Origin: Escherichia coli
Lineage (GTDB): Bacteria > Pseudomonadota > Gammaproteobacteria > Enterobacterales > Enterobacteriaceae
Length of the DNA stretch: 64,000 nt
Assembly (NCBI RefSeq): GCF_003334815.1
Contig: NZ_QOWO01000024.1
Strand: one strand, 5' to 3'
Positions 25,632-26,015 of this stretch are shown here, piece after piece (position 1 is the first letter of the stretch; every line of letters begins with the position of its first letter). The notes below the pieces were generated by a model. The model ran no database searches. It had not been told where the DNA came from and worked only from the letters and a program-made list of their open reading frames with translations. A program made the position numbers and the translations under genes.

Positions 25632-25817
25632 TTAGTGGTTATTCGCTGCCAGATCGGCTTCGCTTAGCTGGGTGGCCGCGAGCACCTGGTCACGATCAAA
25701 GCCCTGTTCCAGCATGCGCAAAGCAATTTTAATGGCTTGTTCATGCAAACCTTCTAATTTACCTTCCTGCCAGCCAATTTGATGTCCTTCCTGCCGCAGC
25801 CGTTCAGCAATAGTCAT
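25632..25817 (-). CDS. ypaA: YpaA-like 61-aa fragment paralogous to the RpnB C-terminus
   Basis: Near-identical to last ~56 residues of adjacent rpnB apart from a 5-residue KLEGL insertion; inherits AAGGAGAGATTAATG from the duplicated coding sequence. Confidence 0.7.
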   Translation of the reverse strand: MTIAERLRQEGHQIGWQEGKLEGLHEQAIKIALRMLEQGFDRDQVLAATQLSEADLAANNH

Positions 25818-26015
25818 TAATCTCTCCTTTTAATGACAGTTCGGAATATCAGCATCAGTGAGTTGGGTTGTCGCCAGCACAATCTCACGTTCAAAGCCCT
25901 GCTCCAGCATGCGCAAAGCAATTTTAATGGCTTGTTCATGCATACCTTCCTGCCAGCCAATTTGATGCCCTTCCTGCCGTAGCCGTTCAGCAATAGTCAT
26001 TAATCTCTCCTTTTG
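25632..26015. repeat. Tandem direct duplication (~190 bp x2) of the rpnB 3' coding end
   Basis: Block ...caaagccctgttccagcatgcgcaaagcaattttaatggcttgttcatgca...cagccgttcagcaatagtcattaatctctcctttt occurs twice head-to-tail (about 25700-25834 and 25888-26011) with a few substitutions and one 15-bp indel. Confidence 0.85.

Follow-up and report, generated by a model that had tools for sequence, protein, structure and literature searches.

The rpnE-ypaA locus of Escherichia coli and ypaA as a probable free-standing second copy of the nested rpnE_S cistron

The locus formed by rpnE and ypaA was analysed on the minus strand of a 64,000-nucleotide (nt) stretch of Escherichia coli DNA (contig NZ_QOWO01000024.1, assembly GCF_003334815.1), referred to here as the window. 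The best explanation of the locus as a whole, to which a probability of roughly 0.85 is given, is that ypaA, a 61-codon open reading frame (ORF), represents a free-standing second copy of the RpnE_S cistron, which lies downstream of rpnE, itself a gene that contains a gene, and which bears the ancestral-type tail. The object is already known from the literature as YpaA/RpnE_Ss. RpnE_L is a PD-(D/E)XK nuclease-family protein, whose gene contains a conserved internal Shine-Dalgarno (SD) sequence and ATG that drive the synthesis of a separate C-terminal product, RpnE_S, and the tandem repeat copied this small cistron exactly, from its SD to its stop codon, to produce ypaA. The evidence points to a single origin of the junction, the two copies exchange head and core sequences, the array collapses recurrently and the short internal repeats drift independently. 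If it is active at all, YpaA would be an additional RpnS-type binding partner of the C-terminal domain of RpnE.

The tandem repeat and the internal start

The 299-codon ORF of rpnE is followed, after 12 nt, by the 61-codon ORF of ypaA (coordinates in Table 1), and the 3' end of the former (approximately 185-200 nt) recurs, as a direct repeat, in the latter. Pairwise comparison recovers this repeat in two segments, with 97% identity over 72 nt between 25760-25831 and 25943-26014 (spacing 183), and 84% identity over 102 nt between 25653-25754 and 25848-25949 (spacing 195), and the tandem repeat is real, far beyond what may be expected by chance. An earlier note, made from the sequence alone, had described both the head-to-tail repetition of the 3' end of the gene and the short ORF, and the alignment of the two copies confirmed this description, including the boundary of the copy at AAAAGGAGAGATTAATG, which encodes K-E-R-L-M in the long ORF; the other limit is the stop codon of each copy. 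Tandem Repeats Finder reported nothing at the repeat, which is the expected outcome, given that there are two diverged copies.

The two copies differ in length by 15 nt, which the note had read as a single KLEGL insertion, although two indels are involved, one of 12 nt, that is, one xxEG unit (K-L-E-G) which is extra in ypaA (approximately 25748-25760), and a separate one of 3 nt near the C-terminus (approximately 25647-25649). At the protein level, YpaA and the C-terminal copy of RpnE share 46/61 residues by BLASTP (75% with gaps, 82% of the aligned residues). A longer repeat unit, reaching upstream of the SD, was considered because the final ~25 nt of the rpnE tail, GATATTCCGAAC, resemble the sequence preceding the internal start, GAGATTGCCGAAC, and was rejected, given that local alignment against 2,000 shuffles produced P=0.03-0.23, depending on the interval, and a control based on the ypaA tail scored equally.

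The long gene had been named rpnB in the note, a name that belongs to yfcI (RpnB is YfcI and RpnE is YfaD; Kingston et al. 2017). It is rpnE in the RefSeq genomes, and in MG1655 it corresponds to b2244 (rpnE, 'inactive recombination-promoting nuclease-like protein'), while b4543 is ypaA, flagged as a pseudogene. RpnE matches PF04754 (Transposase_31 / PD-(D/E)XK) over residues 8-209 (E=7e-88) and the NCBIfam RpnE equivalog PRK09956 at 699 bits, against a cut-off of 583, and the window protein retains D11, D63, E82, Q84, R94 and D165, the first four of which are those needed in RpnA. YpaA, in turn, matches the C-terminus of the NCBIfam RpnE model at 3.3e-31, with the RpnA model reaching only 9.1e-7, and its nearest relative is the RpnS of its own parent, given that, in the head and core, it matches the nested copy at 99/102 nt. 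A precomputed Pfam assignment places YpaA in PF27070 (HTH_Rpn_C), and its AlphaFold 2 (AF2) model (mean pLDDT 76) has helices at residues 3-37, 42-49 and 53-57, with KLEG at 20-23 in the long helix. The top Foldseek match of this model is the RpnA-S structure 7TH0 (probability 1.00, TMt 0.74), which was also found in the Protein Data Bank by phmmer (E=3e-4).

The internal start is marked by AAGGAG, located 6 nt before an ATG (25998-26000) that is in the rpnE frame, 56 codons before the stop. Among the fetched loci, the 75 distinct Rpn C-terminal domains all have an MTIAE-like beginning. In 52/57 distinct contexts, the internal Met is preceded, at a distance of 4-17 nt, by an SD core, in comparison with 10/533 of the other in-frame Mets of the same genes. 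Meydan et al. (2019, bioRxiv 520783) reported that each of the five rpn genes of E. coli has retapamulin-induced ribosome peaks at an internal start in frame with the gene, and Ribo-RET and Onc112 peaks and SPA-tag immunoblots are available for all of them, rpnE included (Meydan 2019; Zhong et al. 2023), and SPA-tagged RpnE_S was detected (Zhong et al. 2023, PNAS 120:e2307382120). The same authors displayed the ribosome-profiling tracks of rpnE-ypaA and described ypaA as a second RpnE_S copy, named rpnE_Ss, the SPA-tagged product of which was detectable (Zhong et al. 2023, PNAS 120:e2307382120).

Given that the repeat unit coincides with this conserved and mapped internal start through to the stop codon, it is the whole cistron that was copied, complete and pre-existing, from SD to stop, and its start was not acquired by accident. 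The earlier note had regarded the ribosome-binding site and start codon as inherited from coding sequence, the event as the birth of a gene fragment by partial duplication, and the expression of the product as open. These three claims have to be replaced, in the first case by a conserved internal start, in the second by the copying of a whole cistron, and in the third by the published detection of YpaA. The internal product of rpnE was likened to YpaA in the preprint as well, with a stated identity of 98% (Meydan et al. 2019, bioRxiv 10.1101/520783), a value that differs from the 46/61 measured on the window sequences.

At the junction, which reads TAA-AAGGAGAGATTA-ATG, the stop and start codons are separated by 12 nt, and the SD of ypaA adjoins the rpnE stop. 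No terminator-like site was found between rpnE and ypaA, the sole one being the hairpin next to yfaU (25598-25624), and a homologous hairpin is located directly 3' of the single-copy rpnE in the outgroups, which makes it likely that this element is common to both convergent transcription units. With the 12-nt gap, the lack of an intervening terminator and a hairpin shared with yfaU, ypaA is most likely co-transcribed with rpnE and rpnE_S, and its translation is possibly coupled to that of rpnE. No known RNA families were found in 25300-27000. A regulatory hairpin at the junction, where a perfect 8-bp inverted repeat would form a stem that holds both the rpnE stop and the ypaA AUG and leaves the SD in its loop, was set aside, since its energy is ordinary against shuffles (-6 kcal/mol locally, z=-1.2, with 26/200 shuffles equally good). 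The stem is kept through wobble pairs in variants (TGTTAT, TTGATG), and the internal start has no equivalent fold.

Table 1. Features of the rpnE-ypaA locus in the window
Feature	Position	Strand	Basis
rpnE (yfaD, b2244), encoding RpnE_L, 299 aa	25830..26729	-	ORF; PF04754; PRK09956; K-12 annotation
rpnE_S, nested 56-codon cistron in the rpnE frame, upstream repeat copy	25830..26000	-	internal ATG 25998-26000
Shine-Dalgarno AAGGAG of the internal start, codons K-E within rpnE	26007..26012	-	sequence; family conservation
ypaA (b4543; rpnE_Ss), probable free-standing second RpnE_S cistron, 61 codons	25632..25817	-	ORF; NCBIfam; PF27070; AF2; literature
Shine-Dalgarno AAGGAG of ypaA, adjoining the rpnE stop TAA (25830-25832)	25824..25829	-	sequence
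Extra K-L-E-G unit in ypaA, helix 1; placement ambiguous within the repeat	25748..25760	-	alignment
ypaA-type (ancestral-type) tail, ending ...FDRDQVLAATQLSEADLAANNH before the stop	25632..25700	-	outgroup and population comparison
rpnE-type (derived) tail, ending ...DADIPNCH	25830..25895	-	comparison with the ypaA tail; co-occurrence with the junction
GC-rich terminator-like hairpin between ypaA and convergent yfaU (rhmA)	25598..25624	.	terminator scan
8-bp inverted repeat at the rpnE/ypaA junction, GUCAUUAA-AAGGAGAGA-UUAAUGAC; weak evidence	25813..25837	-	folding

Distribution, exchange and collapse of the two copies

The arrangement was counted in 5,426 complete E. coli genomes, in which the rpnE/ypaA junction is present in 3,132 (58%) and the rpnE-type tail (...DADIPNCH) in 3,134, essentially only alongside the junction, while the ypaA-type tail with its yfaU-side flank occurs in 5,407, once in each. 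Where E. coli has only one copy (L002 and the O157:H7 genome L004), the ypaA-type tail is the end of rpnE itself, and a single-copy rpnE with this tail also occurs in five further lineages, namely Escherichia sp. MOD1-EC7003 and E1V33, E. whittamii, E. albertii and a divergent 'E. coli', the flanks of which are 92-94% identical to those of the window. The comparison of related genomes, proposed in the earlier note, rules out ypaA as an independent ancestral gene, given that, in all of the single-copy lineages, rpnE terminates, in frame, with the tail of ypaA. No ypaA-like gene without an adjacent rpnE was seen, nor any outgroup with a ypaA that predates rpnE.

Outside E. coli, two-copy loci were found in genomes labelled E. 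fergusonii and Escherichia sp. E4385, E2593 and E2748, which have a full-length rpnE, the small ORF and an identical TAA-AAGGAGAGATT(A/G)-ATG junction, and this identity across four non-coli lineages points to a single origin of the junction. Given both this distribution and the prevalence of 58%, the arrangement is old relative to the diversification of E. coli strains. The ypaA ORF is intact in 14/14 two-copy E. coli loci (the window, L003, L006-L009 and L090-L097) and in seven non-coli loci (L098-L104) in which it was looked up as a called gene. In three of the latter (L098, L100 and L104), the rhamnonate genes (yfaU/rhmA, yfaV and rhmD) are absent downstream of the small ORF or reduced to a remnant of ~200 nt, and the small ORF adjoins a truncated IclR-type gene and yfaY. 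One other observation concerns the single-copy E. whittamii Sa2BVA5 (L012:2501-3440), in which rpnE has a premature stop after 184 codons, while the internal SD, the ATG and a 77-codon RpnE_S-type ORF are still intact downstream of it, and here the small cistron may be outliving the nuclease.

The divergence between the two copies is strongly uneven. In the window, the head and core differ at 3/102 nt, all synonymous, whereas 23/63 nt are different in the last 21 codons, where 10.7/14.5 synonymous sites have changed (heterogeneity p=4e-4). The earlier note had the 5' parts as the more diverged, which holds in plus-strand coordinates only, given that, in the orientation of the genes, it is the C-terminal 21 codons that carry the 23 differences, as against three in the first ~100 nt. 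The age which the note had deduced from this pattern stands relative to strain diversification, but the pattern itself does not reflect simple ageing. It is a sharp mosaic, in which the copies have traded variants of the head and core, and the tails are fixed, deeply diverged lineages. In six two-copy loci, none of the sites in 117 nt of head and core separates all the upstream from all the downstream copies, whereas ~23 tail sites are fixed between them, a contrast that indicates exchange, or gene conversion, on the upstream side of a sharp limit at the G|F codon.

Similar recombination events may also remove one of the copies. The single copy of L002 presents the head markers of the upstream copy (CTA, GGG and no KLEG unit), followed by the core marker (GAA) and the tail of the downstream copy, and is the exact product of an unequal crossover within a 41-nt identical stretch. 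The divergent single-copy 'E. coli' mentioned above, SCPM-O-B-8794 (L014, 3205-3439), has a chimeric tail, the first 37 nt of which are of the rpnE type (95%) and the last 42 nt of the ypaA type (93%), which suggests that the array collapsed through a crossover that fell within the tails, in a genome at the level of the cryptic clades. Both cases agree with the published remark that rpnSs may be lost by deletion or fusion (Zhong et al. 2023). The array collapses repeatedly by unequal crossover, and the single copy that is left always ends in the ypaA-type tail.

In the 14 genomes, the first helix has 0-8 xxEG units when encoded by rpnE and 0-4 when encoded by ypaA, and the indels are always multiples of 12 nt. 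The upstream/downstream combinations are 0/1, 5/0 (three genomes), 1/4, 8/1, 8/4 (three genomes), 5/1 (two genomes), 6/2, 3/1 and 4/4, and the number of 12-nt repeats drifts independently in the two copies.

Origin of the tails and role of YpaA

The comparison of the two tails provides the polarity of the arrangement. The synonymous change between them (10.7/14.5) exceeds that between E. coli and E. albertii (7/16.2), and the ypaA-type tail differs from that of E. albertii at 13/66 nt, below the distance between the two tails. When the window is compared with the cryptic-clade loci, the divergence reaches ~8% in the rpnE N-terminus, 7-8% in the upstream head, 7% in the downstream head and 14-16% in the downstream ypaA-type tail, whereas the upstream tail (...PNCH) differs at 0/66 nt (Fisher p=0.0014 for the contrast of the two tails). 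The ypaA-type tail follows the divergence of the species (7-11/69 nt) and behaves as a resident, vertically inherited sequence, and the robust conclusion is a polarity in which the ancestral-type tail and 3' flank have stayed with ypaA, and the in-frame rpnE tail is derived. The ...PNCH tail could have originated either by replacement or import, followed by spread through recombination, or as an old paralog under unusual constraint.

A plain duplication in situ, in the ancestor of Escherichia, with ordinary divergence of the copies, gene conversion that keeps the 5' two-thirds alike and no foreign tail, is quite conceivable, although it falls short of an even chance. It is consistent with the evident exchange of heads and cores, and with the fact that, among the Rpn tails, each of the two is nearest to the other, and no donor of the ...PNCH tail was found in 80 species-representative loci, in phages, in the PLSDB plasmids (where the hits above 60% identity were E. 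coli records, mostly Mb-sized and apparently chromosomal), or in a database of 5.8 billion proteins, which listed only Escherichia-type proteins of <=101 aa, so that full-length ones were probably missed. In L014, moreover, the rpnE-type segment has 2/32 nt differences, which matches the background of that genome and argues against an extremely young ...PNCH tail. Against a duplication of this type stand the synonymous saturation of the tails, beyond the distance from E. albertii, and the invariance of ...PNCH in genomes where the rpnE N-terminus has diverged by ~8% and the downstream tail by ~15%, given that an old resident paralog would be expected to gather lineage-specific changes.

In a more tentative proposal, which is considered somewhat unlikely as a whole, ypaA would be the displaced original 3' end of rpnE, and rpnE would have gained the ...PNCH tail, as a different C-terminal (oligomerisation/antitoxin) module, from an unsampled, long-diverged source, with a recent spread by recombination, in which the conserved head and core would have served as homology arms. 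Such a source would account for a tail that is saturated at synonymous sites relative to the ancestral one and yet identical, at the nucleotide level, in E. coli and the cryptic clades. The old antitoxin cistron would have been left free-standing, with a repeat number and tail unmatched to those of the toxin. If this is true, the swapping of modules would reset the specificity of RpnL-RpnS pairing in a defence system.

The function of YpaA must be weighed against a number of results that tell against its interpretation as a second RpnE_S cistron. The Pfam-A scan of YpaA returned no significant hit, and neither RpnE nor YpaA had hits in PADLOC-DB v2, a library from 2023 which may predate Rpn. 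A sigma-70 promoter scan of 25400-27000 found no sites, which leaves the published internal promoter unconfirmed computationally and means that co-transcription rests on the anatomy of the locus and on published dRNA-seq statements. The copy is missing from 42% of the complete E. coli genomes, and the repeat numbers are equal between the copies in only 1/9 haplotypes, while, in RpnC, a mismatch of one repeat abolished neutralisation (Zhong et al. 2023). No published experiment on the binding or neutralisation of RpnE_L by YpaA was found. In addition, over-expression of the K-12 RpnE brought neither toxicity nor SOS induction (Kingston et al. 2017), an inactivity that makes the toxin side of the RpnE module a putative one.

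The annotation also points the other way, given that ypaA has a RefSeq pseudogene flag and PGAP describes it as a 'hypothetical protein, incomplete, missing N-terminus', with the newer label 'Rpn/YhgA-type helix-turn-helix domain-containing protein'; rpnE itself is called 'ISNCY family transposase' by PGAP (L003, L005-L009 and L090-L097). The 'missing N-terminus' flag arises because ypaA is compared with full-length RpnE. The broken frame and missing start signals that would identify a pseudogene are not seen in ypaA, in which the ORF, SD and ATG are all intact, and the pseudogene labels conflict with both this intact ORF and the published detection of the protein.

The same labels nevertheless support the view that ypaA is a decaying remnant with no role, translated only through its retained SD and ATG, which recombination would regenerate and homogenise. 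The ease with which ypaA is lost by crossover, its absence from so many genomes and the uncoupling of its repeat number from that of rpnE all fit this view, as do the amino-acid changes in the core of the downstream copy, otherwise invariant, in some haplotypes (H->R, E->K and E->V in the L003 type, L->Q in L095) and the free-standing tails, in which 7/22 residues differ for 10 nt changes between the window and the cryptic-clade loci, suggesting weak constraint. However, no frameshift or nonsense mutation was seen in the 14/14 E. coli and seven non-coli loci, despite frequent indels, each a multiple of 12 nt, both the SD and the ATG persist everywhere, the arrangement is maintained in several Escherichia lineages, and YpaA accumulates to detectable levels, which renders an inert remnant unlikely.

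As a probable second RpnE_S cistron, ypaA has a relationship with the resident nuclease that depends on its position outside rpnE. Nesting enforces the co-evolution of RpnL and RpnS, as stressed by Zhong et al. (2023), and given that YpaA lies outside this constraint, and that a mismatch is known to be harmful in RpnC, it is uncertain whether it would neutralise the resident RpnE_L. One other possibility is that YpaA is a modulator, rather than a cognate antitoxin, either by forming heterodimers that titrate RpnE_S or by guarding against another RpnE_L allele, whether ancestral-type or incoming. The unequal repeat numbers in 8/9 haplotypes, together with the role of the repeat number in setting RpnS-RpnL specificity in RpnC, are compatible with this, as is the identity of the head (the dimerising helix) in the two copies, when their tails (helices 2-3) are fixed and different. 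This proposal is purely inferential, though, and a single match among nine haplotypes is close to the expectation under independent drift, with no sign of selection for mismatch, which makes it distinctly improbable. Weakest of all, and very improbable, is the formation of a new gene fragment by partial tandem duplication, with a ribosome-binding site and start obtained by chance where K-E-R-L-M reads AAGGAGAGATTAATG and with its expression left open, which accommodates the repeat and its boundary as described but is at odds with an SD and ATG that form a conserved, experimentally mapped internal start throughout the family, with a repeat unit that matches the cistron from SD to stop, with the detection of YpaA and with the true name of the gene. 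In this form, it is already refuted by the conserved start and by the published detection of both RpnE_S and YpaA.

The published inactivity of RpnE deserves further attention, since it was obtained with the K-12 allele, in a test in which RpnE_S was probably co-expressed. The window differs from MG1655 by two substitutions in the 1,113-nt rpnE-ypaA region, both non-synonymous, with L107 (26409-26411) and P155 (26265-26267) in place of Q107 and L155. Given that L107 and P155 are common to all 15 other Escherichia alleles examined, including that of E. albertii, L107Q and P155L are private to MG1655, and the inactivity may be specific to this allele, in contrast with the consensus allele of the window. 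The practical value of these findings lies mainly in the correction of annotation, that is, the gene is rpnE rather than rpnB, and ypaA is an intact, translated small gene, and the additional analyses provide a cleaner picture of how cistrons are copied, homogenised and collapsed by recombination.

Comparison with known systems

The YpaA/RpnE_Ss of Zhong et al. (2023) and Meydan et al. (2019) is the same object at the same locus, to which the present analysis adds the prevalence of 58%, the ancestral-type tail in ypaA, the invariance of ...PNCH across species and the mismatch in repeat number. The free-standing RpnS of another paralog, located directly downstream of its own parent rpn gene, has the same architecture at a different locus, and its origin was reported to be independent (Zhong et al. 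2023).

In the characterised paralogs, the nested RpnS is the intragenic antitoxin of a phage-defence module, which binds RpnL and blocks its toxicity, SOS induction and DNA cleavage in vitro, and the neutralisation of the toxicity or nuclease activity of RpnL by RpnS was demonstrated for RpnA, RpnB, RpnC and RpnP2, with RpnA_S forming a dimeric three-helix bundle (Zhong et al. 2023). The rpnE-ypaA pair resembles these four systems in the internal SD and ATG, the three-helix HTH_Rpn_C domain and the variable four-residue repeats of helix 1. Unlike the nested RpnS, ypaA lies outside its parent gene and is free of obligatory co-evolution with RpnL, and it does not share the repeat number or the tail of the resident RpnE_L. 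The toxin and antitoxin roles of the RpnE pair are putative, in contrast with those of RpnA, RpnB, RpnC and RpnP2, and the K-12 RpnE was inactive. In some species, free-standing small proteins with DUF4351 (PF14261) are homologs of RpnS (Zhong et al. 2023), and these embody the same concept, an RpnS produced from a separate gene, although YpaA is placed instead in PF27070 (HTH_Rpn_C) by the precomputed assignment, and its Pfam-A scan, at E<=10, did not recover DUF4351.

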